From the NCBI RefSeq assembly GCF_009650215.1, contig NZ_CP045851.1, positions 759,189 through 783,188 of the forward strand: DNA of 24,000 nucleotides, read 5' to 3'. Positions 2-21,943 of the stretch are shown one piece after another. Source of the DNA: Actinomarinicola tropica. GTDB lineage: Bacteria > Actinomycetota > Acidimicrobiia > Acidimicrobiales > SKKL01. Numbering within the stretch: position 1 is the stretch's first letter; each line of letters opens with the position of its first letter. The translations under genes were made by a program, and so were the position numbers. The notes beneath the pieces are model-generated. The model was not told the DNA's origin, did no database searches, and worked only from the letters and a program-made list of their open reading frames with translations.

Positions 2-799
2 GGGGTCCGGATCGACTACGACGTGCACGGTCCGGAGGACGGCCGGGTGGTGCTGCTGCTCCACGGCTTCCCCGACGATCGCAGCCTCTGGCGCCACCAG
101 GTCGGCCCGCTGGTCGACGCCGGCTTCCGCGTCGTCGTGCCCGACCAGCGGGGCTACGGGCGCTCCGACAAGCCCGCCGAGGTCGACGCCTACAACCTCC
201 TGTTCCTCGCCGGCGACGCGCTGGCGGTGCTCGACGACGTCGGCGCCACCACGGCGTCGGTGGTCGGCCACGACTGGGGCGCGCCGGTCGCGTGGTCGCT
301 CGCGTCGATGGCCTCCGAGCGGGTCGACCGGTTGGTCGCGCTCTCCGTCGGGCACCCCACGGTGATGTCCGACCCGGGGTGGGAGCAGCGCCGCTGGTCC
401 TGGTACATGCTCCTCTTCCAGTTCGAGGACGTCGCCGAGCGCTGGATGACCGACGACGGCGGCGCCCGCTTCCTCGACTGGAGCAGCCACCCGGAGGGCG
501 CAGAGGTCGTCGACCGGCTCGTGGCGACCGGCTCGTTGACGCCGGCGCTGAACTGGTACCGGGCCAACGTCCACCCCCGCTCGATGCTCGAGCCGCCGCC
601 GGCCCTGCCGCCCGTGCAGGCACCCACCACCGGCGTGTGGTCGAGCGACGACATGGCCCTCACCGAGCAGCAGATGGTGCGCTCCGGCGAGCACTGCGCG
701 AACGGCTTCCGCTACGAGCGCTTCGACGGCATCGGTCACTGGATCCCGCTCGAGGCACCCGAGCGGCTGAACGCCCTCCTCCTCGACGTGCTGGCCTGA
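2..799 (+). CDS. alpha/beta-fold hydrolase (epoxide hydrolase / haloalkane dehalogenase-like); 5' end probably off-window
   Basis: Listed ORF 23..799. The frame stays open back to position 2 (GVRIDYDV precedes the listed start). Motifs: LLLHGFPD..W, PDQRGYGRSDKP, nucleophile elbow VVGHDWGA, C-terminal GIGHW. GC3 is high. Confidence 0.85.
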   Translation, partial: GVRIDYDVHGPEDGRVVLLLHGFPDDRSLWRHQVGPLVDAGFRVVVPDQRGYGRSDKPAEVDAYNLLFLAGDALAVLDDVGATTASVVGHDWGAPVAWSLASMASERVDRLVALSVGHPTVMSDPGWEQRRWSWYMLLFQFEDVAERWMTDDGGARFLDWSSHPEGAEVVDRLVATGSLTPALNWYRANVHPRSMLEPPPALPPVQAPTTGVWSSDDMALTEQQMVRSGEHCANGFRYERFDGIGHWIPLEAPERLNALLLDVLA

Positions 800-814
800 G
801 GCCGCCCGGCGGCG

Positions 815-1465
815 TCAGCGCCAGAGGTCGATGCGGCGGCCCTGGAGCTCGAAGCCGTGGTCGATCGCCCACAGCACGGCCTGCGTGCGGCTCGTGACGC
901 CCATCTTGGCGTAGGCCGTCCGGATGTAGGTCTTGATCGAGTTGACGCTGAGGTACGTGCGCTCGGCGATCTGGGCGTTGCTGAGGCCCTGGGCGATCAG
1001 GGCGACGACCTCCGCCTCGCGCTCGCTCAGGCCCTCCTCGCGCCCCGGCCAGTCCTGACCGACGGGCGTGCGGGCGGGCGGTGGGTCGCTCACGACGATC
1101 TCGCCGGCGGCGACGCGCTCGATCGCCTCGACGAGCTCGCCGGCGGGGAGCGTCTTCGCCAGGTAGCCCGAGGCGCCGACGTGGAGCGCCTCCTTCACCA
1201 CGACCTCGTCGAACACCCAGGTGTAGACGGCGACGTGACGTGCCGCAGGGTTCTCGACGAGCACCTGGAGGTCGCCGTCGCCCGCCTCCGGCTGGGCGAA
1301 GGTGTCGAGCAGGACGACGTCGACGTCGCCCTCCCCGAGCTCGCCGGTCGTCATCTCGACCACCTCGATGCGGTCGCGGTAGTGGTCGAACATGTGCGCC
1401 AGGCCGGCGATCACGACGTCGTAGTCGTCGACGATGGCGACGCGCACCGGGTGGTGTTCGCTCAT
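815..1465 (-). CDS. NarL/FixJ-type response regulator (receiver domain plus LuxR-family HTH)
   Basis: This is the C-terminal 216 aa of listed ORF 815..2257, starting at ATG 1465..1463 (MSEHHPVRVAIVDDYD). Receiver residues are present: DD, VVLLD, T (VAVYTW), K (GYLAK). The LuxR HTH reads LSEREAEVVALIAQGLSNAQIAERTYLSVNSIKTYIRTAY. The upstream part of the long ORF is antisense to the gene at 1520..2239. Confidence 0.85.
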   Translation of the reverse strand: MSEHHPVRVAIVDDYDVVIAGLAHMFDHYRDRIEVVEMTTGELGEGDVDVVLLDTFAQPEAGDGDLQVLVENPAARHVAVYTWVFDEVVVKEALHVGASGYLAKTLPAGELVEAIERVAAGEIVVSDPPPARTPVGQDWPGREEGLSEREAEVVALIAQGLSNAQIAERTYLSVNSIKTYIRTAYAKMGVTSRTQAVLWAIDHGFELQGRRIDLWR

Positions 1466-1519
1466 GACGAGGTCCCTCACCCCTCGCACGCCCGCCCAAA
1501 CGTCGGCTAGAGAGGGCGC

Positions 1520-2239
1520 ATGGCGAGCTTCGACCGTGACGGTGCCACGATCCACTACGACGACGAGGGCCGCGGCCACCCCGTGCTGCTCATCGCGCCC
1601 GGCGGGATGCGCTCCGCCAACGAGGTCTGGGGGAACATGCCGTGGAACCCGCGGACGGCCCTCGCCGACGGCTACCGGCTCATCGGCATGGACCAGCGCA
1701 ACGCCGGCCGCTCGACGGCCCCCGTCACCGGTGACGAGGGTTGGGCCACCTACGCCGCCGACCAGCTGGCGCTGCTCGACCACCTGGGGATCGAGCGCTG
1801 CCACGTCCTCGGCATGTGCATCGGCGGCCCGTACATCCTGGGGCTGCTCCAGGCCGCTCCCGACCGGTTCGACAGCGCGGTGCTGCTCCAGCCGGTCGGC
1901 ATCGACGACAACCGCGCGGCGCTCGAGGAGATGTTCGACGCCTGGCGGGCCGACATCGCCGACCGGCACCCCGAGGCCGACGACGCGGCGTGGGCCTCGT
2001 ACCGCTCGCACATGTGGGACGGCGAGTTCGTGCTCACGGCGTCGCCCGAGCAGGCGGCGGCGATCCGCACGCCGATCCTCCTGCTGAAGGGGAACGACCT
2101 GTACCACCCGGCGTCGACCTCGGACGCCCTGGCCGCCACGCTGCCCGACGTCACCTACGTCGAGCGGTGGAAGGACGACGAGAGCCTCCCGGCCACCGAC
2201 GCGACGATCAAGGAGTTCCTCGCCCGTCACACCCCCTGA
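1520..2239 (+). CDS. alpha/beta-fold hydrolase
   Basis: 239-aa ORF. Motifs: HPVLLIAPGG, MDQRNAGRS, nucleophile-elbow-like VLGMCIGG. GC3 is high. It is divergent from the response regulator across a 54-bp spacer. Confidence 0.8.
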   Translation: MASFDRDGATIHYDDEGRGHPVLLIAPGGMRSANEVWGNMPWNPRTALADGYRLIGMDQRNAGRSTAPVTGDEGWATYAADQLALLDHLGIERCHVLGMCIGGPYILGLLQAAPDRFDSAVLLQPVGIDDNRAALEEMFDAWRADIADRHPEADDAAWASYRSHMWDGEFVLTASPEQAAAIRTPILLLKGNDLYHPASTSDALAATLPDVTYVERWKDDESLPATDATIKEFLARHTP

Positions 2240-2706: not shown

Positions 2707-3561
2707 ATGACACGTGCGCTGGTGCTGGGCGGTGGCGGCCCCGTCGGGATCGCCTGGGAGTCGGGACTCGTCGTGGGTCTGGCCGAGCGGGGGATCGACC
2801 TGTCGGTCGCCGACCGCATCCTCGGGACCTCGGCCGGCTCGAACGTCGGGGCACGGCTCGCGCTGGGCCACGACCTGTCGACGGTCGCCCAGGCCCGGTC
2901 GACGCCGCAGCGGTCCGAGTCCGACGCCGTCGGCGGGCCGATGGGGGACCGCCTCGCCGGGCTGATGGAGGTCATGGCCCAGGCGATGGGCCACGAGGGC
3001 ACGCCCGAGGAGGCACGCGCGCTCATCGGCCGCTTCGCCCTCGACGCCGATCCGATGCCGGAGGAGCGGTTCACCGGCGTGTTCGCCGACCTCGCCGACC
3101 AGCCGTGGCCCGCGGCGTTCGCCTGCACCGCCATCCGCGCCCTCACCGGCGAGCTCGTCGTCTGGGACGCCGACGCCGGTGTCGACCTGCACCTGGCCGT
3201 GTCGTCGAGCTGCTCGGTCCCGGGCATCTTCCCGCCGATCACGATCGACGGAGAGCGCTACATCGACGGCGGCATGCGCTCGGCGCTCAACGCCGACCTG
3301 GTCGCGGGGGCGGATCGGGCCGTCGTCGTGTCGGTCATGCCCACGTCCATGGCCGGGTTCGCCGACGTCGGCGGCGAGCTGGCCGCGCTGCGCGGCAGCG
3401 GCACGACGGTCGAGGTCGTCGAGCCCGACGAGGCGTTCCTCGAGCTCGCCGGCATGGGCGCCCACCTGATGGATCTGCACCGCGGCCCGCAGGCCTACGA
3501 GCTCGGCCTCGCCCTCGCCGACCAGGTGGCCGACCGCGTCGGCGTCCACTGGGGCGGCTGA
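2707..3561 (+). CDS. patatin-like phospholipase family protein
   Basis: Oxyanion-hole motif LGGGGPVG, nucleophile GTSAG (G-x-S-x-G), and catalytic Asp in YIDGGM (DGG motif). Confidence 0.85.
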   Translation: MTRALVLGGGGPVGIAWESGLVVGLAERGIDLSVADRILGTSAGSNVGARLALGHDLSTVAQARSTPQRSESDAVGGPMGDRLAGLMEVMAQAMGHEGTPEEARALIGRFALDADPMPEERFTGVFADLADQPWPAAFACTAIRALTGELVVWDADAGVDLHLAVSSSCSVPGIFPPITIDGERYIDGGMRSALNADLVAGADRAVVVSVMPTSMAGFADVGGELAALRGSGTTVEVVEPDEAFLELAGMGAHLMDLHRGPQAYELGLALADQVADRVGVHWGG

Positions 3562-3576
3562 CGCCGGCGCATCCCG

Positions 3577-6300
3577 TCAGCCGGTGTTGCGCAGGCCGGC
3601 GGCGATGCCGTCGATCGTCAGCAGGAGCGCCCGGTCGGTGACGGGGTCGGTCTCGGTGGTCCGGCGGGTGCGCGACAGCAGCTCGACCTGGAGGGCGTGC
3701 ATCGGGTGCAGGTAGCGGTCGCGCACGTCGAGCGTCCGTTGCAGCACCGGGTGCTCCGACAGCGGACCGCGCCCCTCGGTGACCCACGCGAGCTGCTCGA
3801 CCGTCCTGGCGTGCTCGTCCTCGATCACGTCGAGCAGGTGGCGATGCTCGGTGGGCACCAACGCCTCGACGTAGCGGCGGGCGATGCCGAGGTCGGTCTT
3901 GGCCAGCGTCATCTCGACGTTGCTGAGCAGGGCCCGTAGGAACCACCAGTCCCGTGCCATCTGCCGCAGCCGGTCGCCGTGGCCCGCGTCGCGCGCTGCG
4001 GCCAGCCCGGTCCCGACGCCGAACCAGCCGGGCACGATCTGGCGGCTCTGGGTCCAGCCGAACACCCACGGGATGGCGCGCAGCGCGTCGAGCCCGGCGT
4101 TCGCCTCGGGCCGTGACGCCGGCCGGGAGCCGATGTTCAGCCGCCCCAGCTCCTGCACCGGTGTGGACGTGAGGAAGTAGTCGACGAGCGACGGGTCGTC
4201 GACCAGGCGCCGGTAGGCGGCGCGCGCCGCGTCGGAGGTGACGTCCATGACCTCGTCGTAGCCGGCGAGGGTGCTCTCCTCCTGGCGCGAGGTGGTGTGG
4301 AGCACGGTGGCCTCGAGCGTCGCGGCGACGAGCAGCTCGGCGTTGTGCCGGGCGAGGTGCGGCAGCAGGTACTTGTCGCTGATGACCTCGCCCTGCTCGG
4401 TGAGCTTCACCGCCCCCTCGACCGCCCCGTAGGGCTGGGCGAGGATCGCCTGGTGGGCGGGACCGCCGCCGCGGCCCACCGAACCGCCGCGGCCGTGGAA
4501 GAGGCGGAGCCGCACGCCGTGCTCCTGCGCCACGTCGCGCAGCATCCGGATCGCCCGCTGGATCGACCACTGCGAGGTGACGATGCCGCCGTCCTTGTTG
4601 GAGTCCGAGTAGCCGAGCATGACCTCCTGGACGTCGCCGCGGGCCCGCACGACCTCCCGGTAGCTCGGGGTCGACAGGAGGTCGCCGACGATGCGGTCGG
4701 CGTCGAGGAGCTCGTCGATCGTCTCGAGCAGCGGCACGAACGACAGACGGGCGACGCCGCGAGGGACGTCGACCAGTCCGGACTCGCGCGCCGCGACGAC
4801 CGCGGCGAGGACGTCGCTCGGCCCCCGGGTCATCGACACGATGAACGTGCGGATGACGTCGTCGCCGTAGCGGTCGAGGGCGTCGCGGATCACGCTGAAG
4901 GTGCGGGCGACCCTGGTGGCGGTCGGGGAGACCTCGGTCGTGAGGCTGCTGAGCGGGCGGGCCCCGGCGAGCTCGCCGTCGAGCAGGTCGCTGCGGCCCT
5001 CGTCGTCGCTCGGGTAGTCGATGCCGTTGAGCTGGCACAGCTCCTCCACCAGCGTGTGGAGGTTGCGGCTGTGGTCGCGCACGTCCATCTCCGCCAGGTG
5101 GAACCCCGACGCCGCGACGACCCGTCGGACGCCGTCGAGCCGGCCGACCGCGAGGTGGCCAGCTCGCTCGCGCAGCGAGCGACGGACGAGGTCGAGCTCG
5201 GCGAGTAGCTCGGTGGCGTCGCGGTAGTCGACCCCCGGCCGGTGCGGCGTGCCCGTCCGGTGTCGCTCCCTGGTGTTGAGCACGCGCTCGCGGCAGTAGG
5301 ACAGCTTGAGCCGGTAGGGCTCCTCGGCGTTGAGGTGGGCGAGCCGCTCCCAGACCTCGGGCAGCGCGGCCCGGTCGGCCTCCAGGCTGGCGACCAGCTC
5401 CGGGTCGTCCCCGACGATGAGCGACGACGGCGACAGCTCGGTGATGAGGTCGGCGAGGGCCCGCTCGATGAGGAGCAGCCCGCGGTCGTGCATCCACGCG
5501 AGGACCGCGGAGGTGACCTCCGGCGTCACGTTGGGGTTGCCGTCGCGGTCGCCGCCCACCCACGTGCCGAACCGCAGCGGCTGCGCGTCGAGGGGCAGCT
5601 CGACCCCGGCCCGGGCGAGGTGCGCCTCGAGGTCGACGAGCAGGTCGGGGAGCACGTTCCAGAGGACGGACTCCGCGTAGTACAGGGCCGACTGGGCCTC
5701 GTCGGTCGGACGGGGCGCGTTGACCCGCAGCTCGTCGGTGACCCACAGCAGGTCGATGAGCTCGGCGGCGCGCCGGTCGAGCCGCTCGTGCTCGTCGTCG
5801 CCGAGCCGCGGGTCGTGGCGGCGGTCGAGCAGCTCGGCGAGGTCGGCGAGCTTGGTGAGCACCGAGCGGCGCGACGACTCGGTGGGATGGGCGGTGAGCA
5901 CCGGTCGGACCTCGAGGCTCGCCACCGCGTCGGCCAGCTCGTCGGCGGGGAGGCCGGCGTCGGCGATGCGCTCGAACGTGGCGCGCATCCAGCCCCGCCC
6001 GCCGTCCTCGGGCCGGTTGGTGAGGCTGACGCGGTGCGCCTGCTCGGCGACGGTCGCCAGGTGGAAGTACGTGGTGAACGCCCGGGCGTAGAGGATCGCG
6101 TCGAGCGCCCCTGCGGCGGCCAGGCGGTCGGCCAGCTCGCGGCCCGCGGCGGCGTCGCCCTCGTCGGCTCGCCGGGAGAGCTGGCGGATCTCCTCCACGG
6201 CATCGAGGAGGTCCTGTCCGCCCTGGCGGACGAGCGCCCGCCCGAGCTCGTCGCCCAGGCGGCGGATGTCGGATCGGAGCGCGGCGTCGACGTCGTCCAT
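3577..6300 (-). CDS. ppc: phosphoenolpyruvate carboxylase
   Basis: 907-aa product starting at ATG 6300..6298 (MDDVDAALRSDIRRLGDELG). Hallmark motifs: VLTAHPTE, MLGYSDSNKDGG, FHGRGGSVGRGGGP, and the invariant C-terminus GLRNTG. The remainder of listed ORF 3577..7491 is an out-of-frame shadow over the upstream gene. Confidence 0.95.
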   Translation of the reverse strand: MDDVDAALRSDIRRLGDELGRALVRQGGQDLLDAVEEIRQLSRRADEGDAAAGRELADRLAAAGALDAILYARAFTTYFHLATVAEQAHRVSLTNRPEDGGRGWMRATFERIADAGLPADELADAVASLEVRPVLTAHPTESSRRSVLTKLADLAELLDRRHDPRLGDDEHERLDRRAAELIDLLWVTDELRVNAPRPTDEAQSALYYAESVLWNVLPDLLVDLEAHLARAGVELPLDAQPLRFGTWVGGDRDGNPNVTPEVTSAVLAWMHDRGLLLIERALADLITELSPSSLIVGDDPELVASLEADRAALPEVWERLAHLNAEEPYRLKLSYCRERVLNTRERHRTGTPHRPGVDYRDATELLAELDLVRRSLRERAGHLAVGRLDGVRRVVAASGFHLAEMDVRDHSRNLHTLVEELCQLNGIDYPSDDEGRSDLLDGELAGARPLSSLTTEVSPTATRVARTFSVIRDALDRYGDDVIRTFIVSMTRGPSDVLAAVVAARESGLVDVPRGVARLSFVPLLETIDELLDADRIVGDLLSTPSYREVVRARGDVQEVMLGYSDSNKDGGIVTSQWSIQRAIRMLRDVAQEHGVRLRLFHGRGGSVGRGGGPAHQAILAQPYGAVEGAVKLTEQGEVISDKYLLPHLARHNAELLVAATLEATVLHTTSRQEESTLAGYDEVMDVTSDAARAAYRRLVDDPSLVDYFLTSTPVQELGRLNIGSRPASRPEANAGLDALRAIPWVFGWTQSRQIVPGWFGVGTGLAAARDAGHGDRLRQMARDWWFLRALLSNVEMTLAKTDLGIARRYVEALVPTEHRHLLDVIEDEHARTVEQLAWVTEGRGPLSEHPVLQRTLDVRDRYLHPMHALQVELLSRTRRTTETDPVTDRALLLTIDGIAAGLRNTG

Positions 6301-7061
6301 CACACCAGTGTGTTCGCGAACACCTGCCATGCGAGGAGGCTCTTGGCCACGAGGCTGAGGACGATGTAGATCCGCTCGCCGCGGAGGTAGTCCGTCCAGC
6401 CGCCCCGCGCCCGGTACTGCAGCAGCTGCACCAGGGCGAAGCAGTTGAAGGCGACGAAGATCGTCACGAAGATCCCGTACACGAAGTTCGGCACCTCGTC
6501 GCCGGCGCCGAACAGGTAGATCGAGATGCCGATCCACGGGACGGCGCCGATGATCGAGCCGAACACGAACGGGCTCCAGTCGACTCGCTCGTCGGCCCGG
6601 TTCTTGGTCTCCATCTCCCAGCCGAAGAAGATCATCGCGGCGTTGGCGCCGAAGAGGCCGAGGAGCGCGACGGCGTCGGTGATGCCGGTGATGCCGGCGA
6701 TGAGCACGATCATCAGCGACGCCGACAGCGAGTACTCGACCCAGCGGAAGCGGTTGCGACCCTCGGACAGCTCGTGCTGGTAGCGGGACCATCCCGACGG
6801 GGACACGACGAGGAAGTGGAAGAACGCCGAGAGCAGGGAGAACGCCGCCACGGCCGGACCGAGCGGATAGCTGAACAGCTCCTCCAGCTGGTCGCCCGAC
6901 ACCGGGGTGCCCGGCGGGCCCGACGCGAACAGCGCGGTGACCGGGAGGGAGAAGTCGTTCGACAGGACGATGATGAGCGTGCCCTGGACCAGGTGGGCCA
7001 GGCCCGCCACCAGGTTGAAGGGGCGGAGGCGCGACAGGGCGCGGGCGTCGATCTCGGTCAT
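6300..7061 (-). CDS. heliorhodopsin (7-TM retinal-binding protein, inverted topology family)
   Basis: 253 aa with seven hydrophobic helices. From memory it aligns end to end with heliorhodopsin 48C12. Matching elements: FN..G.AHLVQG (His23), a long TM1-TM2 loop, SAFFHFLV (His82), RFRWVEYSLSAS (Glu109 at the counterion position), PNFVY, and TM7 LSLVAKSLLAWQVF with Lys240 (codon 6342..6344). An SD-like GAAGGGG lies 5 nt upstream of ATG 7061. Confidence 0.9.
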   Translation of the reverse strand: MTEIDARALSRLRPFNLVAGLAHLVQGTLIIVLSNDFSLPVTALFASGPPGTPVSGDQLEELFSYPLGPAVAAFSLLSAFFHFLVVSPSGWSRYQHELSEGRNRFRWVEYSLSASLMIVLIAGITGITDAVALLGLFGANAAMIFFGWEMETKNRADERVDWSPFVFGSIIGAVPWIGISIYLFGAGDEVPNFVYGIFVTIFVAFNCFALVQLLQYRARGGWTDYLRGERIYIVLSLVAKSLLAWQVFANTLV

Positions 7062-7144
7062 GTGGGCCCCTTCGTGGCGGGTCGTGCTGACGGATGCAGC
7101 GGTGGCGCCCTACCAGTCGCCGGCCGGCGGAAAACGGTGCGCGG

Positions 7145-8098
7145 TCAGCCGAGGAAGCGGCGGACGTCGTCGGCGTCGGCCCCGAGCGCGACCAGGGCGT
7201 CCGGTGCGATCGGTTCGAGGGGATCGATGTCGACGGCGCCGCGCTCCCACCGCCAGGTGGCGACGGCCCGGCCGTCGACGAGCGCGATGGCCCGGAAGAG
7301 CCCGTTCGTGGTGACGACGCCGCGGTGCGGTCCGGTGATGCGCGGGCGGTCCGTCCAGCCGTGCAGGAGGGGGTCGAACGGGCCGAGGAGACGCGGTGGC
7401 GGCGGGCGCGCGTCGCGGTGGTCGCGCCGGACGACGAGGTTGTCGTCGCCCCACGGCTCGGTCTCCTCGGCGATGGCGGCCAGACCGGCACGGGCGTCGC
7501 CGAGGGTGAGCCCGCTCCACGCGGCCAGGTCGCGCGCCGAGGCCGGCCCGTGGCCTCGCAGGTAGCGCCGGGCCAGCTCGGCGAGCGCGGCGTCGTGGTC
7601 GACGGGTGGCATCGGCCCGAGCCAGGACTCGACGTCGACGAAGGCGTGGCGACCGTCGACGACCGGGCCGCGGACGAGCGCGTGGCGCAGCGTCGCGGCC
7701 ATGAGGATGTGGACGATCGCCTGGCCGGCCGTGCGGATGCCGGCGGCGTCGACCCGGTCGCGCAGCTGCTCCCGGGTGAGCGGGCCCTCGGCCCGCACCG
7801 ACGACATCACCACCTCCACGGCCCGGTCGGCGTCGGCGGGCGGGACGCCCTCCTCGCCCAGCCGACGGGCGTTGTGGACGAGCTGGCGGGGGGCGGTGAG
7901 CGCGTGCAGCCAGTGGTGGTCGGCGGCGGGGACGAGGTGGAGCGTGCCCCGGTGGAGCCAGCTGACGACGAGGGCGCGGTCGACGGTGACCGGGCGGCGG
8001 TGACGGGGTCCATGGGCCGAGTGTGGCTGCTCCTGCGGACAGGATCCGACCGCGTTCGCGGCGAGCTTGCGACCTTCGGCCCTACCTCGTGGGTGCAC
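7145..8098 (-). CDS. winged-helix DNA-binding protein, AlkZ/YcaQ-like DNA glycosylase family (short N-terminus)
   Basis: 317-aa ORF with a GTG start at 8098. Family-typical blocks: LHRGTLHLVPAADHHWL, ELARRYLRGHGPASARDLAAWSGL, FDPLLHGWTDR, ALVDGRAVATWRW. A possible Q-x-Q catalytic motif (PQEQPHSA) lies near the N-terminus. The N-terminus looks about 15-20 aa shorter than I expect for the family. Confidence 0.7.
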   Translation of the reverse strand: MHPRGRAEGRKLAANAVGSCPQEQPHSAHGPRHRRPVTVDRALVVSWLHRGTLHLVPAADHHWLHALTAPRQLVHNARRLGEEGVPPADADRAVEVVMSSVRAEGPLTREQLRDRVDAAGIRTAGQAIVHILMAATLRHALVRGPVVDGRHAFVDVESWLGPMPPVDHDAALAELARRYLRGHGPASARDLAAWSGLTLGDARAGLAAIAEETEPWGDDNLVVRRDHRDARPPPPRLLGPFDPLLHGWTDRPRITGPHRGVVTTNGLFRAIALVDGRAVATWRWERGAVDIDPLEPIAPDALVALGADADDVRRFLG

Positions 8099-8118
8099 CG
8101 GCAGCGGATCCTCGGGGC

Positions 8119-9666
8119 ATGGGAGCCGAGGAGCACCGCCAGCGCGTCCGGTCGATCATCGAGGACCCGGCGCTGACCTACCGCCAACGGGTGTACGCCC
8201 TGGCCGGCGCGGCCGAGGACGCGCTCGACCCGCCGGCGGTGAGCGCCGCCTGTGCGCTCGCCCTCGACAAGGGCCTGATCTGCGACCTGGCCGAGGGGCA
8301 CGCGCCGTATCGTCCCCGCTACACGCTGCCCGACTACGCCCGGGCCCTGGCCCGGGGCAGCACGTTCCTCGAGCTGCCCCCGCCGACGACGTTCGACGAG
8401 GCGACCACGTTCCTGCTCGCGGCGTACGCCAACGTCCCGTCGATCACCGGCTACCCGGTCTGGTTCGGCGACCTCGACCGGCTGCTCGAGCCCTTCGCCG
8501 CCGATCTCGACGACGACGAGCTGCGCACACGCCTGCGTCGGTTCTGGGTCCTGCTCGACCGGCTGTTCCCCGACGCCTTCGCCCACGCCAACCTCGGGCC
8601 GGCCGACGGGCGCGTGGTCCGGGCCGCGCTCGGCGTCCACCGCGACGTCCACCAGGTGGTCCCGAACCTGACACTGCGGGTCGACCCCGACGTCACGCCC
8701 GACGACCTGCTGCTCGAGGCGGCCCGCACGATCGTCACCGTCGCCCAGCCCCACCTGGTGAACCACCCGATGATGGTCGCCGACCTCGGCGAGCGGTACG
8801 GCGTGGTGTCCTGCTACAACGCGCTGCCGGTCGGCGGGGGCTCCCACACGCTCGTGCGGCTCAACCTGCTGGAGGCGGCTCGCCGCCACTCGGGCTCGGC
8901 GGAGCGGTTCCTCGACACGACCCTCCCCGGCGCGATCGCCCTGACGGCGGAGCTGATGGAGGCCCGCATCCGGCACGTCGTCGAGCAGGCCCGCTTCTTC
9001 GAGTCCTCGTGGCTCGTCGACGAAGGGCTGCTCTCGCTCGACCGCTTCACCGCGATGTTCGGCATCGTCGGGTTGGCCGAGTGCGTGGAGCACCTGCTGC
9101 TGCTCGACGGCCGCGAGGGCCGCTACGGCCGCGACCGTGCCGCCGACGACCTGGCCCACGACATCGTCGAGCGCGCCGCGGCGATCGTCCACGCCCTCCC
9201 CATGCCCCATTGCGAGGCGACCGGCGGACACGCCCTCCTGCACTCGCAGGCCGGGCTCGACTCCGACGCGGGGTTCACCGCAGGGACCCGGGTCCGCGTC
9301 GGGGACGAGCCGGACCTCTACCGCCACCTCGCCGCGGTGGCGCCGAACCACGCGCACCTCCCGTCGGGCGTGAGCGACATCGTGCGCCTCGACGAGACCG
9401 TGGTCGACAACCCGGAGGCCGTCGTCGACGTGGCGCGGGGCGCGCTCGCGCTCGGGATGCGGGACGTCACGTTCGAGGTGGCGAACGGCGAGTTCGTCCG
9501 GGTGACCGGCTACCTGGTGAGGCGCAGCGAGATCGAGAAGGTGGCGGCGGCGGACGCCGTGCGGCACTCGAGCAGCGTCCTCGGCGCCGGATCGTTCGCC
9601 AACGCCGGGCTGGATCGCCGCACCGCTCAGCGGGTGCGGTCGCACGAGCGGACGGTCGGGACGTGA
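8119..9666 (+). CDS. yjjI: YjjI-family (DUF3029) glycyl-radical enzyme
   Basis: 515 aa from ATG 8119; as I recall, E. coli YjjI is of similar size. Blocks shared with E. coli YjjI as I remember it: ICD..EGHAPY.PRY.LPDYA, PDAF.HANLGP.D.RV, NLT...DP..TPDDLLL, GVVSCYN.LP.GGG..TLVRLNL. The glycyl-radical motif VRVTGYLVR has its Gly codon at 9508..9510. Confidence 0.85.
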   Translation: MGAEEHRQRVRSIIEDPALTYRQRVYALAGAAEDALDPPAVSAACALALDKGLICDLAEGHAPYRPRYTLPDYARALARGSTFLELPPPTTFDEATTFLLAAYANVPSITGYPVWFGDLDRLLEPFAADLDDDELRTRLRRFWVLLDRLFPDAFAHANLGPADGRVVRAALGVHRDVHQVVPNLTLRVDPDVTPDDLLLEAARTIVTVAQPHLVNHPMMVADLGERYGVVSCYNALPVGGGSHTLVRLNLLEAARRHSGSAERFLDTTLPGAIALTAELMEARIRHVVEQARFFESSWLVDEGLLSLDRFTAMFGIVGLAECVEHLLLLDGREGRYGRDRAADDLAHDIVERAAAIVHALPMPHCEATGGHALLHSQAGLDSDAGFTAGTRVRVGDEPDLYRHLAAVAPNHAHLPSGVSDIVRLDETVVDNPEAVVDVARGALALGMRDVTFEVANGEFVRVTGYLVRRSEIEKVAAADAVRHSSSVLGAGSFANAGLDRRTAQRVRSHERTVGT

Positions 9667-10406
9667 CGTCGCTGCGCGTCGCCGACGTGGTGCGCTCGTC
9701 GTACGTGGACGGACCGGGGCACCGCTACGCGCTGTTCCTCCAGGGCTGCACGTTCAACTGCCCGGGCTGCCACAACCCGCACACGATCGCCCCCCGCTCG
9801 CCCGACGCCCGGGACGTGCCGGTGGCGGAGATCGTGGCCGACGTGGCGGAGGTGGCGCCGTTCCTCACCGGGATCACGGTGTCGGGCGGCGAGGCCACCC
9901 TGCAGTGGGAGGCGGTGCACGCACTGTTCGAGGCGTTGGCCCTCGACCCGGCGACCTCGCGCCTCACCCGCCTCGTCGACACGAACGGCGACGCCGAGGC
10001 CGGGGTGTGGTCGGTCCTCGCGACGTCGATGCACGGCGCCATGGTCGACCTGAAGGCCCTCGACCCCCACGTCCACCGGGTGCTCACCGGCCGCACCAAC
10101 GATCGGGTCCTGCGCTCGATCCGCGACCTCGCGGCACGGCGGCGGCTGGACGAGGTGCGGCTTCTCGTCGTGCCGGGCGTGAACGACACCGCGGATCAGA
10201 TCGACGCCACCGGTCGGTGGTTGGCGTCGATCGATCCCGTTCCTCCCGTGGTGGCGCAGGGGTTCCGCCACCACGGGACCCGTCTGCGGGCCCGGGCGTG
10301 GGCCGAGGCCACCACGAGGGACCTCGAGCGGGTCGCCGACGGCCTCGCCGCCTACGGCCTGGACGTGCGCCGGCGCTCGCTGCCCGAGGTCGCCGTCGCG
10401 GTCTAG
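9663..10406 (+). CDS. yjjW: glycyl-radical enzyme activase, YjjW/PflA-like radical SAM protein
   Basis: The GTG start at 9663 overlaps the yjjI stop (GTGA). The N-terminus reads VDGPGHRYALFLQGCTFNCPGCHNP, giving a CX3CX2C cluster (Cys codons 9747, 9759, 9768). GGEAT is a SAM-binding motif. Only the last 247 aa of listed ORF 8067..10406 are real. Confidence 0.9.
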   Translation: MTSLRVADVVRSSYVDGPGHRYALFLQGCTFNCPGCHNPHTIAPRSPDARDVPVAEIVADVAEVAPFLTGITVSGGEATLQWEAVHALFEALALDPATSRLTRLVDTNGDAEAGVWSVLATSMHGAMVDLKALDPHVHRVLTGRTNDRVLRSIRDLAARRRLDEVRLLVVPGVNDTADQIDATGRWLASIDPVPPVVAQGFRHHGTRLRARAWAEATTRDLERVADGLAAYGLDVRRRSLPEVAVAV

Positions 10407-11269
10407 GGATCCACCCGGTGGTGGCGGAGGCGGTCGAGGGCGTCGACGGTGACCATGCCCCGCCACTCCCACACCGACGGCTCGGTCGGCGGCTCCCACC
10501 GGATGGGCCAGCCGCCGTCGGGCTGCTGCTCGGAGGCGAGCGCGTCGAGGTGGGCGGCGACGAGGTCGGCGTCGAACCAGCTGCGCCAGGTGCTGTCCGG
10601 TCGGGGGGCGATGTCGAGCGGGGTGAGGCCGTACTCGGGGTCGTCGGGGTCGGCACGGTAGTCGGGGGCGTCGACGAGCGCGGTGAGCACCTGTGGGGCG
10701 AGCCGCTCGGCCGTCGCCCGGTCGGGGAGGTGGGTGAGGAGCGTCAGCGCGCACAGGTGCACGTGGGCGTTGCCCTCGACACCGGCGGCGATGGCGTCGA
10801 GGCACCAGGCCGTGGCGTCGTCGAGCCAGGCGTGGCGCACCTGCTGTCCGTGCAGGAGCCCGGCGATCGCCGCCGTGGGGTTGAGGCCGGGCGGGAAGCT
10901 GGTGACCTCCTGCCAGTGGCTCGCCCGGGGGTGGTCGGCGAAGGACGGGAACATGATCGGCAGGGCGCCGGCGCGGTCGGCGACGCCGGCCAGGTGGTCG
11001 CAGAGCGATGCGGTCACGTCGTCGGGCAGGTGGGCGTCGACGCTCCCGACCGCCTCCAGGGCGACCTGGGCGTAGAGCGGTTGGCTGGCGGGGTCGCGGG
11101 TGTCGGGCTCGAGGCCGTGGCCGAACCCGCCGTCGGGGTTGCGGTAGGCGAGCACAGCGGCGACGACCGCGTCGGTCGGGCCGCCGTCGAGCAGGGCGAT
11201 GGCGCGGCGCTGGTCGAGGATGCGGGCGTGGGCGCGGATGAAGGCGCGTGCCGCGGGGATGTCGGGCAT
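10403..11269 (-). CDS. prenyltransferase/terpenoid-cyclase-like alpha/alpha-toroid repeat protein, function unknown
   Basis: 288 aa from ATG 11269 (MPDIPAARAF). QW-like repeats: YRNPDGGFGHGLEPD and EQQPDGGWPIRWEP. GAGGAG lies upstream and overlaps the stop of the WYL regulator. Its stop codon overlaps the yjjW stop in a palindromic CTAG (10403..10406). Confidence 0.65.
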   Translation of the reverse strand: MPDIPAARAFIRAHARILDQRRAIALLDGGPTDAVVAAVLAYRNPDGGFGHGLEPDTRDPASQPLYAQVALEAVGSVDAHLPDDVTASLCDHLAGVADRAGALPIMFPSFADHPRASHWQEVTSFPPGLNPTAAIAGLLHGQQVRHAWLDDATAWCLDAIAAGVEGNAHVHLCALTLLTHLPDRATAERLAPQVLTALVDAPDYRADPDDPEYGLTPLDIAPRPDSTWRSWFDADLVAAHLDALASEQQPDGGWPIRWEPPTEPSVWEWRGMVTVDALDRLRHHRVDP

Positions 11270-11280
11270 TCGGGAGCTCC

Positions 11281-11964
11281 TCAGGGGGCGATGGTGTCGA
11301 AGGGGACGTCGAGGACCTCGTCGAGGTCCCGGTGGGGGGCGACCTCGTCGGTGAGCTCGATCGTCTCGATGCGGTCGAGGCGGAAGACCCGGCCGTCGTC
11401 GCGGAGGCGGCACCAGCCGACGAGGTACGTCGCGTCGGCGTGGACGTGGAGGCCGTGGACCTCGACGGTGCGCTCGGTCCGGCGGTCGTGGCCGTCGGTG
11501 TAGGTGAGGGTGACGACCCGCCGGTCCCGCAGCGCGGCCTCGACGGCGCGGAGGACGGTGGCGTCGTGCGGCTCGGGCGGTCGAAGGCGCAGTCGCTGCG
11601 CGAGTTGCTCGGCGGCCGCGACCTGGTCGGGACGCATGGCGGCGAGCAGCTTCTGGCGGGCCCGGCGGCCCGCGTGGGCGAAGGGCGCGCTGGGCGCCGC
11701 TGCGAGGGCGAGCATGACCGCCAGCGCCTCGTCGGCTTCCAGGTTGAGCGGTGGCAGCGTGGCGCGGGCGTCGATGGCGTAGCCGCCCGTGCGGCCACGC
11801 TCGGCCCAGATCGGCACGCCGGACTGCTGGAGCGCGGCGATGTCGCGCTCGATCGTGCGCACGCTGACCTCGAACCGCTCGGCCAACCGGGTGGCCGACA
11901 GCGGACGCGGCGCGACGGCGCGCAGCTCCTCGACGAGGGCGTAGAGGCGGTCGGTCCGGTTCAT
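11281..11964 (-). CDS. YafY-family transcriptional regulator (HTH plus WYL domain)
   Basis: 227 aa from ATG 11964 (MNRTDRLYALVEELR). The DeoR/YafY-type HTH reads SATRLAERFEVSVRTIERDIAALQQSGVPI. The WYL region reads YLVGWCRLRDDGRVFRLDRI. Confidence 0.85.
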   Translation of the reverse strand: MNRTDRLYALVEELRAVAPRPLSATRLAERFEVSVRTIERDIAALQQSGVPIWAERGRTGGYAIDARATLPPLNLEADEALAVMLALAAAPSAPFAHAGRRARQKLLAAMRPDQVAAAEQLAQRLRLRPPEPHDATVLRAVEAALRDRRVVTLTYTDGHDRRTERTVEVHGLHVHADATYLVGWCRLRDDGRVFRLDRIETIELTDEVAPHRDLDEVLDVPFDTIAP

Positions 11965-12013: not shown

Positions 12014-13309
12014 TCAGGCGACCTCGGCGAGCTCGGCGAGGAGGGTGTCGCGGGCCCAGGCCGTGAGACGTTCGCCGGCCCCTCGTCGGCGTTGCCGTGC
12101 GCCCAGGCGTCGGCGGAGACCCGGTGTCGCGGGGTGTCGGGCGGACACCGATCGCCCGGCGGGATCGACGAGCTCCCATCGGTGCCGTCCCGGCGGGGGA
12201 TCGGCCGCCGGCCGGAGGTGGAGTTGGTTCCGGTGCACGACCCTGTGGTGGTGGCGGCACAGGAGGACCAGGTTGTCGAGCCGGGTCGGGCCACCGTCCG
12301 CCCAGTGGTGGATGTGGTGGGCGATCAGCCGACGGGTGGCCCCGCATCCGGGGTAGCAGCAGCCACCGTCGCGGGCGAGGAGAGCCCGCCGTTGCGCGGC
12401 CGTGGCGAAGCGGGTGGGCTCGGTGACGGCCACGGGCACGCCCCGCACCATCAGCGTCGTCGTGATGGGCCCCTGCTCAGCGAGCATCGGAAGCCACCAG
12501 TGGGGGACTGCGCCCGCCCCGGGGATGAACGCCCGGTCGATCACCAGGCCCTCCTCCACCTCCCGCGCGTGCACGACGACGTTCACGGTGGCCGTCTCGG
12601 GCGCGAACCCCACGTCGTTGGTCCTGGTGCTGGTGGCGCGCTCGCCGAGGGCGAGCAAGGCCTCGGCGCACGAGCGCTGGTGCGGCGGCGTCGGCCCCGT
12701 CTCGTCACGCCCGTCGAGGCGCTCGCGCTCGGATTCGAGCCAAGCCTGAAGCGCCGCACCGTCGGCGGCGTCGAAGTCGCCGCTCAGCTGGAAGCGACCG
12801 TCGCGCCAGTGCCAGCGTGCCCGCGAGGGGTCGGGCTCGTCGTCCTCGTCGGGCTCGGCGTCGTCGTCCTGCCGGCGGGCCGGCGCCGTGATGCGCGCGT
12901 GCTCCTGGAGCACGCGCTCGAGCTGGTTGCCGGTGAGCTCGCGCGTGGCCTCCAGGAGGGCAGCTTCGTTCTCCGGCGTGGCCCGCCGGGCGATGGCGAG
13001 CACCGACCGCAACGAGCGCTCGCCGCTGGACAGCACCTGACGTGTGAGCGGAAGCTCCGACAGGCGGTCGACGAGCTCGACCACCTCCCGGGCCTCGGCC
13101 CCTGTCATCCCCAACGCCCACGCGAGGTACGACGGCCACGGGTCGGCGCAGTTCGTCTCCATGAGCTCGGCAGTGCGGGCCACGAGCTGGGCCTGCCACG
13201 CCGCGACCTGCCCGGCGGCCTCGGTCGCGGCGGCGAGGAGCACCTCGTGCCGCGCCGCGTCGTCGCCAGGGTTCGGGGGTTCGGCCACCTGCAACTCGTT
13301 CGCCGCCAT
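12014..13309 (-). CDS. DUF222 / HNH endonuclease domain protein (actinobacterial 13E12-repeat type)
   Basis: 431-aa ORF. The N-terminal DUF222-like region includes AELMETNC...YLAWALGMTGAEAREVV. The C-terminal HNH region reads CCYPGCGATRRLIAHHIHHWADGGPTRLDNLVLLCRHHHRVVH. Confidence 0.85.
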   Translation of the reverse strand: MAANELQVAEPPNPGDDAARHEVLLAAATEAAGQVAAWQAQLVARTAELMETNCADPWPSYLAWALGMTGAEAREVVELVDRLSELPLTRQVLSSGERSLRSVLAIARRATPENEAALLEATRELTGNQLERVLQEHARITAPARRQDDDAEPDEDDEPDPSRARWHWRDGRFQLSGDFDAADGAALQAWLESERERLDGRDETGPTPPHQRSCAEALLALGERATSTRTNDVGFAPETATVNVVVHAREVEEGLVIDRAFIPGAGAVPHWWLPMLAEQGPITTTLMVRGVPVAVTEPTRFATAAQRRALLARDGGCCYPGCGATRRLIAHHIHHWADGGPTRLDNLVLLCRHHHRVVHRNQLHLRPAADPPPGRHRWELVDPAGRSVSARHPATPGLRRRLGARQRRRGAGERLTAWARDTLLAELAEVA

Positions 13310-19007: not shown

Positions 19008-20117
19008 ATGCCGGACGAGAACGTGATCATCGCCGTACCCACCGAGGTGGGACCGGAGGAGCGGGCCGCGGTGGGCTTCGACGACGGGAGCCGGGCCCGG
19101 ATCGACCTGACCGACGAACGGGCTGCCGGGCTCGCCGAGATCCTCGCCGGGCTGCGCGACCTCCGCCGGCCCGCCTACGTCGAGCTCGACGCGGCGACGG
19201 GCGCGGTGGTCGAGCTGCGCATCCCGCACGTGTCGCGGGTGGCGCGGGTCATGACGCTCGACGAGGACGTGGTCGCCGTGCAGCTCGAGCTGTCGCACGC
19301 CCGCCACCTGCTGCGTGCCGACACCGACGGGTACGAGGGGATGCGAGACCTGCTCCGTCGATCGGTCGAGGACGGGACGGTGCTCGTCGTCACCGAGGAC
19401 GACCGGCACCACATCATCGACGTTCGCCCGTCGAGGTGGGAGATCGAGTGGCCGCCGCCGGTGCGCCAGCAGCTGCCCCGGTGGTTGCGGTGGGTGCCTG
19501 AACCGCTCGTCCCCGTCGTGCGGCGGGTGTTCCACCTCTCGGAGGACGCCCTGTCGTGGCTGCTGTGGTGGCTGTTCCCGGTGTCGGGAGCGAAGGCCCG
19601 TCAGGTGTTCGACGCGCTGAACACGTTGAGCTGCCACCCGGTGAACGTGCCGGTGCCGTGCATCCCCTTCCTCTACCCGGACGACGGCTGCTGGGGCCGA
19701 GCGCACGAGATGACCCGGCTGATGAAGGGCATGAGCGTGCGCCCCCGGAAGGTGTGGATCGAGGGGTGGTTGGGTCCGGCGACCCGGAACAACCCGAGCT
19801 GCGAGGTGTTCTGGGGTTGGCACGTGGCGCCCACGCTGCGTGTGCGGCGGTGGCTCTGGATCTTCATGGCTCGCACCGAGGTGATCGATCCGGCCCTCTT
19901 CGGCGGCCCGGTCGCGCAGAGCACCTGGAAGAGCGTGCAGAACGACCCGAACGCCACGCTGACCCCGTCGAGCGCGTCGATCTTCTACCTCTGGGGGTCG
20001 GTCACGGACCCTGACAACTCCCAGACCGAGGGTGTGCTGGCCACCTACCGGCTGCACCTGCGGAACCGTTCGCTCTCGCCGTCGGGTCCGCCGCCCTACG
20101 CCCACTGCCCGGTGTGA
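19008..20117 (+). CDS. protein-glutamine glutaminase (protein deamidase) domain protein with a novel N-terminal domain
   Basis: GGGAGG lies 6 nt before ATG 19008. The C-terminal roughly 150 aa match the Chryseobacterium protein-glutaminase core as I remember it. Pairs are given as here / Chryseobacterium: CIPFLYPDDGCWGRAHEM / CITFRYPVDGCYARAHKM; VFWGWHVAP / VAWSYHVA; VIDPALFGGPV...W / IIDPSLFSSGPVTDTAW. Triad codons: Cys228 at 19689..19691, His272 at 19821..19823, Asp294 at 19887..19889. There is no N-terminal signal peptide. Confidence 0.75.
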   Translation: MPDENVIIAVPTEVGPEERAAVGFDDGSRARIDLTDERAAGLAEILAGLRDLRRPAYVELDAATGAVVELRIPHVSRVARVMTLDEDVVAVQLELSHARHLLRADTDGYEGMRDLLRRSVEDGTVLVVTEDDRHHIIDVRPSRWEIEWPPPVRQQLPRWLRWVPEPLVPVVRRVFHLSEDALSWLLWWLFPVSGAKARQVFDALNTLSCHPVNVPVPCIPFLYPDDGCWGRAHEMTRLMKGMSVRPRKVWIEGWLGPATRNNPSCEVFWGWHVAPTLRVRRWLWIFMARTEVIDPALFGGPVAQSTWKSVQNDPNATLTPSSASIFYLWGSVTDPDNSQTEGVLATYRLHLRNRSLSPSGPPPYAHCPV

Positions 20118-20207: not shown

Positions 20208-21146
20208 TCATGACACGAGCGCGGCGGTGATCGACTCGGCGTTCGTGCGCATCATCCCGAGGTAGGAGTCCGCCGATGAGCCGGGCGGACCGAGCGACTC
20301 GGTGTGCAGGCTCACCACGTCGATGTCGAGACCCGACTCGACGGCCAGGACCTCCGCGAGCCGGGTCGGCTGCGACGTCTCGGCGAAGATCGCCCGGACG
20401 TCGGAGGTCCGCAGGACGGTGGTGAGGTCGGCGAGGTCCCTCGCGCTGGGGCTCGCCAGGGTGCTGCCGGACGGGATGACGGCGCCGAGGACCTCGAACC
20501 CGTAGCGATCGGCGAAGTACCCGAACACGTGGTGGTTGGTGACGAGCCGCCGTCGCTCCGGCGGGATCGTCCCCACCATGTCCTCGATCTCGCTGTCGAG
20601 CGCCTCCAGCCGTCGGCGGTAGTCCTCCTGTCGGCCACGCACGTCGTCGGCTGCCGCATCGGTGACCAGCTCCGCCAGGTGATCGCCGATGAGGTCGGAC
20701 GCGGTGGCCATACGGCGCGGATCGGTCCACACGTGTGGGTCGAGGTCGGGCCCGCGGGCGGCCACGGTGCCGGCGTAGCCGAGTGGGTCCAGCGCCGGTC
20801 CCACCTCGAGCACCGGGACACCCTCGCGGCGGGCCGCGGCGAGCACGTCGACGAGGCCCTCCTCGAGCCCGAGCCCGTTGGCGATCACGAGGTCCGCGTC
20901 GAGCAGCCGCTCGGCCTCCGCTGCCGACAGCGCGAGGCCGTGGGGGTCGGCACCGGGGGGCATGAGGTCGATCACCTCGATCGCGTCACCGCCGATCGCC
21001 GCGGTGACGTCGGCGAGGATGTTGGTGGTCACCGCCACCGTGGGCACCCGCCCCTCCTCGTGCGCGGAGGAGGAACGGGTGCACGCCGTGGCGACGAGGA
21101 GGACGGCGCTGACCGTCAGGGCCAGCGCCGCTCGGCGTCCGAGCAC
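20208..21146 (-). CDS. metal ABC-transporter substrate-binding lipoprotein (cluster A-I; ZnuA/TroA/AztC-like)
   Basis: 312 aa from GTG 21146. The signal/lipobox reads VLGRRAALALTVSAVLLVATAC. Metal-ligand blocks: GADPHG, DPHVWTDP, NHHVFGYFADRYG (His at the third ligand position, which suggests Zn/TroA-type rather than Mn-type), IFAETS. Only the last third of listed ORF 20208..23147 is real. Confidence 0.85.
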   Translation of the reverse strand: MLGRRAALALTVSAVLLVATACTRSSSAHEEGRVPTVAVTTNILADVTAAIGGDAIEVIDLMPPGADPHGLALSAAEAERLLDADLVIANGLGLEEGLVDVLAAARREGVPVLEVGPALDPLGYAGTVAARGPDLDPHVWTDPRRMATASDLIGDHLAELVTDAAADDVRGRQEDYRRRLEALDSEIEDMVGTIPPERRRLVTNHHVFGYFADRYGFEVLGAVIPSGSTLASPSARDLADLTTVLRTSDVRAIFAETSQPTRLAEVLAVESGLDIDVVSLHTESLGPPGSSADSYLGMMRTNAESITAALVS

Positions 21147-21151
21147 GTGGT

Positions 21152-21571
21152 TCAGTCGTGGGTCGTCGGCGCGAGCCCGACGACCGCGACGCCGGCCGGG
21201 TTGCCACCCACCGCGATCTCCCGCGCGACGCGCAGCTCGTCGGCGATGCCGAGCTCGACGACGCGGCCGCCGTCGGGATCGGTGACGTAGGCGCGATCGC
21301 CGGCGACGAGGACGGTCGGGACGGGCGGACCGCCGTGGCCGTCGGGAAGCTCGATGGTGTCGAGGACGGGGGTGGACTGGAGCACCTCGCCCGTGGCGGG
21401 GTCGATCCGGTGGACCTGGCCGTCGTCGGTGAGGGCGACGATCACCTCGTGCTCCTCGTCGAAGGCCATGGCGACCAGGGCGGCGGGGAGCGGGATCATG
21501 GCCGAGGTGCCGGCCTCGATGTCGATGCGGACGACGGCCTCGTCGGCGAGGGTGCCGATGGCGCCGTCCCT
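21152..21571 (-). pseudogene. beta-propeller repeat protein, C-terminal fragment (YVTN/AztD-like), 5' portion missing
   Basis: The protein-like sequence RDGAIGTLADEAVVRIDIEAG...LVAGDRAYVTDPDGGRVVELGIADELRVAREIAVGGNPAGVAVVG shows typical propeller-blade repeats. Upstream in frame it degenerates to Arg-rich shadow. The first in-frame ATG is at 21499. Its stop lies 5 nt before the SBP start. Confidence 0.45.
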
Positions 21572-21591
21572 GGCCGGAGAAGGGCTCGGCG

Positions 21592-21936
21592 GTGTCGAGC
21601 CGACCCACGTGGTACGGCGAGCTGGCCACCCACGACGCCGCCGTGTTCGGCTGCACCGACGGGGTGCTCGTGCTCGAGTCCCACGGCGACCACTGGGACG
21701 CCACCAAGATCGCCAACCCCGACGGCGCACCCGAGGACGCCCGCACCGGTTCGTTCGTCGGCGGGCACGACCTGCCCGAGCTGGACGAGATCCTCGTGAT
21801 CGTGGCGCCGGTGCTGCTCGGCGGCGGCACCCGCATGTTCGACCTGCGGGGCCGGCCCGACGTCGACCTCGAGACGATCTCGGTCACCCACACGCCGCTG
21901 GCGACCAACATGCACTTCCGCGTCCGCTCGCGCTGA
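21592..21936 (+). pseudogene. RibD_C / dihydrofolate-reductase-like family protein, C-terminal fragment
   Basis: The C-terminal block LDEILVIVAPVLLGGGTRMFDL...LE...V.HTPLATNMHFRV is typical of the family. Members I recall are about 180-200 aa. The N-terminal half is absent and the middle part looks degenerate. Confidence 0.45.
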
Positions 21937-21943
21937 GCGGCGC

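Follow-up and report, generated by a model that had tools for sequence, protein, structure and literature searches.

A heliorhodopsin gene overlapping the phosphoenolpyruvate carboxylase gene of Actinomarinicola tropica: a probably young and lineage-restricted pairing

When the gene of a light-sensing membrane protein runs without any gap into the gene of a central metabolic enzyme, does the arrangement reflect a working partnership between the two proteins, or the shared expression of two genes that came to lie side by side? The question is raised by a stretch of 24,000 nucleotides (nt) from Actinomarinicola tropica (Acidimicrobiia, Acidimicrobiales, Iamiaceae), called here the window, in which a heliorhodopsin gene (HeR; 6300..7061, minus strand) is followed on the same strand by ppc, the gene for phosphoenolpyruvate carboxylase (PEPC; 3577..6300, minus strand), with one base belonging to both. 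The cellular roles of heliorhodopsins, which are abundant photoreceptors, are mostly obscure, and their partners have so far been found by testing the gene that lies next to them. An earlier note on this DNA had taken the junction as evidence of translational coupling and obligate co-transcription, and had proposed that the two genes form a functional unit linking light to anaplerotic fixation of CO2/HCO3-. The analysis reported here favours, with a probability of roughly 0.62, a young operon fusion restricted to one lineage, in which both genes are co-expressed and no dedicated partnership between HeR and PEPC is needed.

Two full-length genes and the junction between them

The upstream open reading frame (ORF) encodes 253 amino acids (aa) and reads as an intact, full-length heliorhodopsin. 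It matches the Pfam family PF18761 over profile positions 1-242 of 242 (E 5e-95; 317.8 bits against a cut-off of 26.7) and the NCBIfam HeR equivalog NF038020 with 303.5 bits (cut-off 100), is 100% identical to the NCBI protein named 'heliorhodopsin HeR' of Actinomarinicola tropica, and aligns with the solved 48C12 HeR with an E value of 5e-76. The retinal-lysine motif SxxxK in transmembrane helix 7 (TM7) is present as S236-LVA-K240, while the counterion E109 lies in TM3 within RWVE109YS, at the site where the solved HeR 9ljj has the Glu of chain position 107; together with H23 and H82, these two residues (K240 and E109) were invariant in an alignment of 31 homologous sequences. Direct reading also revealed an element resembling a Shine-Dalgarno (SD) sequence, GAAGGGG (7067..7073, minus strand), 5 nt before the HeR ATG, and the relatives carry GAAGGAG, GGAAGG or GAAGGGG at the same site.

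The downstream ORF, of 907 aa, likewise reads as an intact, full-length PEPC. From residue 8 onwards it covers profile positions 1-919 of 919 of PF00311 (E 2e-293; 976 bits), it scores 885 bits against the NCBIfam equivalog NF000584 (cut-off 815), and it matches the NCBI entry for A. tropica PEPC with 100% identity. The translation contains VLTAHPTES (with TAHPTE), GYSDSNKDGG, FHGRGGSVGRGGGP and a C-terminal NTG. Both gene identities given in the earlier note are therefore confirmed, each ORF being full-length and above the corresponding NCBIfam equivalog cut-off.

The predicted start of ppc at the ATG 6300..6298 is firm when the gene is compared with those of two close relatives, L081 and L165, in which the PEPC N-terminus MDDVDAALRSDIRRLGDELG is kept; in L165 the ppc frame is closed by stop codons upstream, with no alternative start before the conserved MDDVDAALR. 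In the window no stop codon interrupts this frame anywhere in the HeR gene, and an ORF of 1304 aa (3577..7491, minus strand) results. A ppc start further upstream, inside HeR, was considered and rejected on the basis of the in-frame stops that L165 has in that region and of the periodicity of GC content at third codon positions (GC3), which follows the HeR frame. The long open frame across HeR is an artefact of high GC content, and one that could mislead ORF callers on the position of the ppc start.

Read on the minus strand, the junction is ...ACA CTG GTG TGA TGG ACG ACG..., that is, a TGATG (6298..6302) in which the HeR stop TGA (6302..6300) and the ppc start ATG (6300..6298) have base 6300 in common, exactly as the earlier note had described. 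The distance between the genes is accordingly -1 nt on the same strand, which falls within the same-strand criterion of <10 bp of Bulzu et al. (PMC8612252). No canonical SD sequence was found before ppc, as GGAGG, GAGG and AGGA are all absent from the 20 nt that precede its ATG (TTCGCGAACACACTGGTGTG), and the reported lack of both a spacer and a separate SD element for ppc is thus correct. An overlap of stop and start codons, together with a distal gene that has no ribosome-binding site of its own, is the configuration of a translationally coupled pair; an in-frame GTG (6303..6301) immediately 5' of the ppc ATG represents a possible alternative start. Overlaps of the TGATG type are among the commonest junctions of co-directional prokaryotic genes, and for this reason the overlap, although real, is not statistically unusual by itself.

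Distribution and history of the pairing

Close relatives of the locus were located by exact-protein look-ups, and the arrangement of HeR followed by ppc was present in three related lineages, represented by the window, L081 and L165. Among the loci examined, the TGATG overlap is confined to the window and L081, with an identical junction in L083. In L081 and L083 the HeR is 89% identical to that of the window, the junction GTGTGATGGACGACG is the same and the N-terminus of PEPC is 76% identical, and the gene upstream of HeR encodes an ankyrin-repeat protein and not the AlkZ-like DNA glycosylase found upstream of HeR in the window. In L165 (HeR 84-86% and PEPC 80% identical to the window) the AlkZ-like gene, HeR and ppc follow one another in the same direction, with 70 nt between HeR and ppc; radical-SAM and YjjI-like genes lie upstream in the opposite orientation, and a patatin-like gene and a DUF302 gene converge on ppc from the other side. 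Two further relatives have no ppc beside HeR: in L084 (HeR 86% identical) the AlkZ-like gene and HeR face a convergent patatin-like gene at a distance of 25 nt, and in L085 (82%) the AlkZ-like gene and HeR are followed by a gene of the UDP-GlcNAc-2-epimerase type in the same direction. The HeRs with 74-80% identity to that of the window occupied six different and unrelated neighbourhoods.

A wider census covered the best 80 of at least 572 HeR loci in genomes (species representatives with 51-74% identity, the A. tropica genome not being among them) as well as 79 metagenome loci, and PEPC was sought around each HeR by tblastn (E <= 1e-3). No PEPC was detected within 5-6 kb of HeR at any of the 80 genome loci, 68 of which had at least 1.5 kb of downstream DNA, nor at any of the 79 metagenome loci, 60 of which had at least 600 nt downstream. 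Taken together, about 128 distant HeR loci had enough downstream DNA, and none of them carried ppc. The metagenome scan used a single HeR protein as query and returned relatives of at most 61% identity, so that it adds breadth and no close relatives. Clustering of the neighbours at about 165 loci retrieved recurrent neighbours in other clades only, among them proteins assigned by inspection of their sequences to an SDR, an ATPase-like and a carbon-nitrogen hydrolase type, and several of the clusters consisted of antisense shadow ORFs. The two PEPC relatives with about 75% identity whose loci were examined (L166 and L167) are not beside a HeR; they have other upstream genes, such as methylmalonyl-CoA mutase, and their ppc is preceded by a TAGCGT box resembling a -10 element about 40 nt upstream of the ATG and then by a GAGG SD sequence.

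Tabulating the gene downstream of HeR, which the earlier note had suggested as a check, thus gave a divided answer. The adjacency is not unique to this genome, as it occurs in three related lineages; its distribution is nevertheless narrow and patchy, with ppc missing from L084, L085, the six HeR loci at 74-80% identity and about 128 more distant loci, and no wider group of HeRs was found to share it.

The history of the junction can be followed in an alignment of the window, L081, L165 and L084. The HeR of L165 ends in ...TLVE and that of L084 in ...TLVD, each directly before the stop codon, while the window and L081 lack about 72 nt, which comprise the entire spacer, the former stop and the HeR codon before it, so that CTGGTG-TGATG-GAC remains. 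The overlap is hence derived and arose through a deletion of about 72 nt, because the alignment with L165 and its 70-nt spacer displays the segment that was lost. Bootstrapping of the HeR quartet grouped the window with L084 and L165 with L085 in 290 of 300 replicates, a branching that calls for two or more events of ppc gain or loss. Patatin identities, on the other hand, place L084 outside the window and L165, and AlkZ did not resolve the branching; these markers conflict as to whether ppc was gained or lost. Under either direction, these comparisons indicate that the HeR-ppc adjacency changes readily among closely related lineages.

Competing explanations of the adjacency

The explanation favoured here is an operon fusion of recent origin. 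An intact HeR gene and the ordinary ppc gene of the organism lie head to tail, and in A. tropica and one close relative the deletion of about 72 nt took away the former HeR stop together with the codon before it and the 70-nt spacer behind it, thereby creating the TGATG. In consequence, ppc is most likely transcribed from the promoter region of HeR, where a candidate motif is found about 45 nt before the HeR ATG, and ribosomes that terminate at the HeR stop most likely re-initiate at the overlapping ATG of ppc. Judging from the layout of the genes, co-transcription of HeR and ppc and termination-reinitiation between them are likely in A. tropica. The coupling and co-transcription proposed earlier are in this respect reasonable, considering that there is no intergenic space and that the HeR gene contains no TANNNT hexamer; the word 'obligate' is too strong, because a promoter could lie within the HeR gene.

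The candidate motif, TGGTAGGGCGCC (7104..7115, minus strand), was found by aligning the upstream regions and includes a -10-like TAGGGC (7112..7107). The window shares it with L165, with L084 and also with L081, where the upstream gene is a different one, and it may represent a HeR-proximal promoter, an operator or another regulatory element. TANNNT hexamers were absent from the HeR gene and its upstream region in both the window and L081. In L165, the sole TANNNT in HeR and the spacer is TAGGGT (7987..7992), 8 nt before the ppc ATG, a placement that, given the promoter pattern of actinobacteria, would fit an mRNA with little or no leader. This suggests that ppc in L165 has a promoter of its own, possibly leaderless, that was deleted in the A. 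tropica lineage. The TAGGG core of this element resembles the core of TGGTAGGGCGCC.

Other signals at the junction were few. A consensus scan for promoters and terminators over 3300-8400 on both strands returned nothing, which is uninformative given that the organism is an actinobacterium with 73% GC, and no terminator-like hairpin was found between HeR and ppc. The junction RNA of the window was less structured than 198 of 200 shuffled sequences (z = +1.95), that of L165 was unremarkable (z = -0.35), and folding of the two revealed no stable or conserved hairpin; these results therefore support neither coupling by the melting of a structure nor a terminator. Over its final 45 nt the HeR gene of the window agrees with that of L081 at 98%, compared with about 86% on average, a value compatible with a constrained junction, although other segments reach 100%.

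The same observations bear on the possibility that the genes are adjacent and expressed independently, with a promoter in the 3' part of HeR driving ppc and the overlap being a neutral by-product of deletion in a compact, high-GC genome. We consider this rather unlikely. It would suit a housekeeping gene such as ppc, which in the two relatives without the linkage (L166 and L167) has its own candidate promoter and SD sequence and in L165 has a possible -10 box directly before the ATG, and the empty scan counts little against it, as actinobacterial promoters are poorly captured by consensus searches. However, the HeR gene of the window and that of L081 lack any TANNNT hexamer that could serve in this way, and the high identity of the last 45 nt of HeR also speaks against a neutral origin of the junction, albeit less so in view of the fully identical segments elsewhere.

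The proposal of a light-linked anaplerotic module goes further: the cytoplasmic face of HeR would bind PEPC at the membrane and modulate its activity in the light, and the overlap would ensure that both are produced jointly. The precedents are of this kind. Glutamine synthetase (GS; PMC9529153) and photolyase (PMC9769723) are reported partners of HeR, as the earlier note had correctly stated, and the ABC transporter OmrDE was added later (PMC11109279); regulation by HeR of a protein encoded beside it thus has precedents. The closest parallel is the HeR-GS operon of Actinobacteria bacterium IMCC26103 (Cho et al. 2022, PMC9529153), in which HeR and a soluble enzyme of central metabolism also lie on the same strand with a single predicted promoter, and GS, like PEPC, acts at the interface of carbon and nitrogen metabolism. 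The likeness ends there, since for HeR-GS the binding (Kd in the micromolar range) and a light-dependent up-regulation were measured, whereas HeR-PEPC is known here from the genes; moreover, GS is a repeated neighbour within a phylogenetic 'GS group' of HeRs, and polycistronic metatranscripts of the pair have been seen (PMC8612252), while the adjacency of PEPC is limited to three close relatives and lost in a fourth. The HeR-photolyase pair of Trichococcus flocculiformis (PMC9769723) and HeR-OmrDE (PMC11109279) resemble the present case in that the partner was nominated by its position in the same operon, and differ from it in that those partners have experimental support and fall within the ten recurrent neighbour groups found in a survey of 448 HeRs, to which PEPC does not belong. 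The terms 'phosphoenolpyruvate' and 'Actinomarinicola' are absent from the supplements of that survey, and full-text literature searches for heliorhodopsin together with PEPC, or with carboxylases in general, retrieved no paper that links the two, in agreement with the statement in the earlier note that no such pairing was known to have been described.

On balance, we regard this module as improbable. The same-strand overlap without an SD sequence for ppc fits it, as does the persistence of the adjacency in three lineages with a spacing that became tighter over time, and, more speculatively, so does the cytoplasmic cavity of HeR, proposed to hold triangular anions such as carbonate (PMC9529153), considering that PEPC uses bicarbonate. 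Nonetheless, HeR and ppc do not behave as a conserved functional unit: L084 has the same flanking genes and no ppc, L085 has no ppc beside HeR either, none of the approximately 128 distant loci carries one, and L165 retains a spacer with a likely ppc promoter. In addition, no residue was specific to the HeRs linked to ppc in a comparison of 3 linked with 16 unlinked sequences, a sample too small to be given much weight, and PEPC lies outside the recurrent neighbour groups. A dedicated module connecting light to PEPC is therefore an undescribed and purely predicted system that the comparative evidence supports weakly. Its most specific form, in which HeR would have recruited PEPC in Actinomarinicola and its closest relatives for membrane binding and light-tuned fixation of bicarbonate, possibly by way of the cytoplasmic anion cavity, and in which the shrinking of the spacer would reflect selection for stoichiometric production, is similarly improbable. 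Also decidedly improbable is a transcriptional link only, in which ppc behind the HeR promoter would inherit the regulation of HeR, for instance by light or stress, with no contact between the proteins: the conserved motif upstream of HeR in four relatives and the loss of the putative ppc promoter along with the spacer agree with it, but no light-responsive regulator and no retinal or carotenoid gene was found within the window.

An operon fusion without a protein partnership thus accounts best for these data, and it must be set against several points that weigh in the other direction. Selection for co-expression is one possible reason why the spacing tightened from +70 to -1 nt, and the adjacency has been kept in three lineages despite the divergence of PEPC to 76-80% identity. 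The census was a sampled one and may have overlooked HeR-ppc pairs that arose independently elsewhere. Furthermore, the validated HeR partners (GS, photolyase and the ABC transporter) were all picked by adjacency in the same operon (PMC9529153, PMC9769723, PMC11109279), and HeR neighbourhoods have been characterized as 'promiscuous' (PMC8612252), so that a narrow distribution is compatible with a function. Generic translationally coupled pairs with TGATG or ATGA junctions share with HeR-ppc the one-base overlap and a distal gene without an SD sequence, features that suggest termination-reinitiation; such pairs are usually conserved and encode subunits or pathway partners, whereas the HeR-ppc overlap is a recent product of deletion that joins a photoreceptor to a housekeeping enzyme.

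Surrounding genes and biological meaning

The gene upstream of HeR in the window, which encodes the AlkZ-like DNA glycosylase (7145..8098, minus strand; PF06224, E 6e-51), lies 83 nt away on the same strand. Four of the five closest relatives (the window at the coordinates above, L165 at 6083..7084, L084 at 803..1852 and L085 at 3..422) carry a gene of this type upstream of HeR and in the same orientation, at a distance of 54-87 nt, and none of about 165 other HeR loci does; in this clade it is a more stable neighbour of HeR than ppc is. A DNA-repair neighbour recalls the published link between HeR and photolyase, and the AlkZ-like protein is outside the ten published neighbour groups. On the other side, a patatin-like phospholipase gene (2707..3561, plus strand; PF01734, E 6e-18) is convergent with ppc, the two stop codons being separated by 15 nt, and is the end marker of the HeR-ppc unit.

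Divergent from the AlkZ-like gene are a YjjI-like glycyl-radical enzyme gene (8023..9666, plus strand; PF11230, E 6e-187) and, adjoining it, a radical-SAM activase gene (about 9645..10406, plus strand), both syntenic in L165. The enzyme is of an oxygen-sensitive type, and A. tropica is an aerobic marine actinobacterium. An ORF at 9627..11798 (minus strand) is an antisense shadow of the radical-SAM gene, with 50% identity to the opposite strand of L165. Further along, a protein with an HNH-endonuclease domain (PF01844) is encoded at 12014..13309 (minus strand), and a stretch of 61 aa with 62% identity to it occurs about 1.3 kb downstream of HeR in an unrelated Iamiaceae metagenome-assembled genome (L027), which is probably a coincidence. 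The window also includes a protein with a Gln_deamidase_2 domain (19008..20117, plus strand) and an ORF of 979 aa (20208..23147, minus strand), the C-terminal 270 aa of which form a metal-binding domain of the ZnuA type, while its long N-terminal part is probably an over-extension.

The HeR-PEPC pair is new relative to the published neighbour surveys, although the kind to which it belongs, a HeR with an adjacent enzyme gene, is already known. The comparative data lower the prior for a functional link, as HeR neighbourhoods in the Iamiaceae turn over rapidly and the junction is a recent product of deletion, and the case calls for caution in inferring function from a single tight overlap. A. tropica is a cultured isolate, and the hypothesis of a connection from light to anaplerotic CO2/HCO3- fixation should therefore be cheap to test. 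If true, a HeR-PEPC module would tie light sensing to the anaplerotic fixation of CO2/HCO3-.

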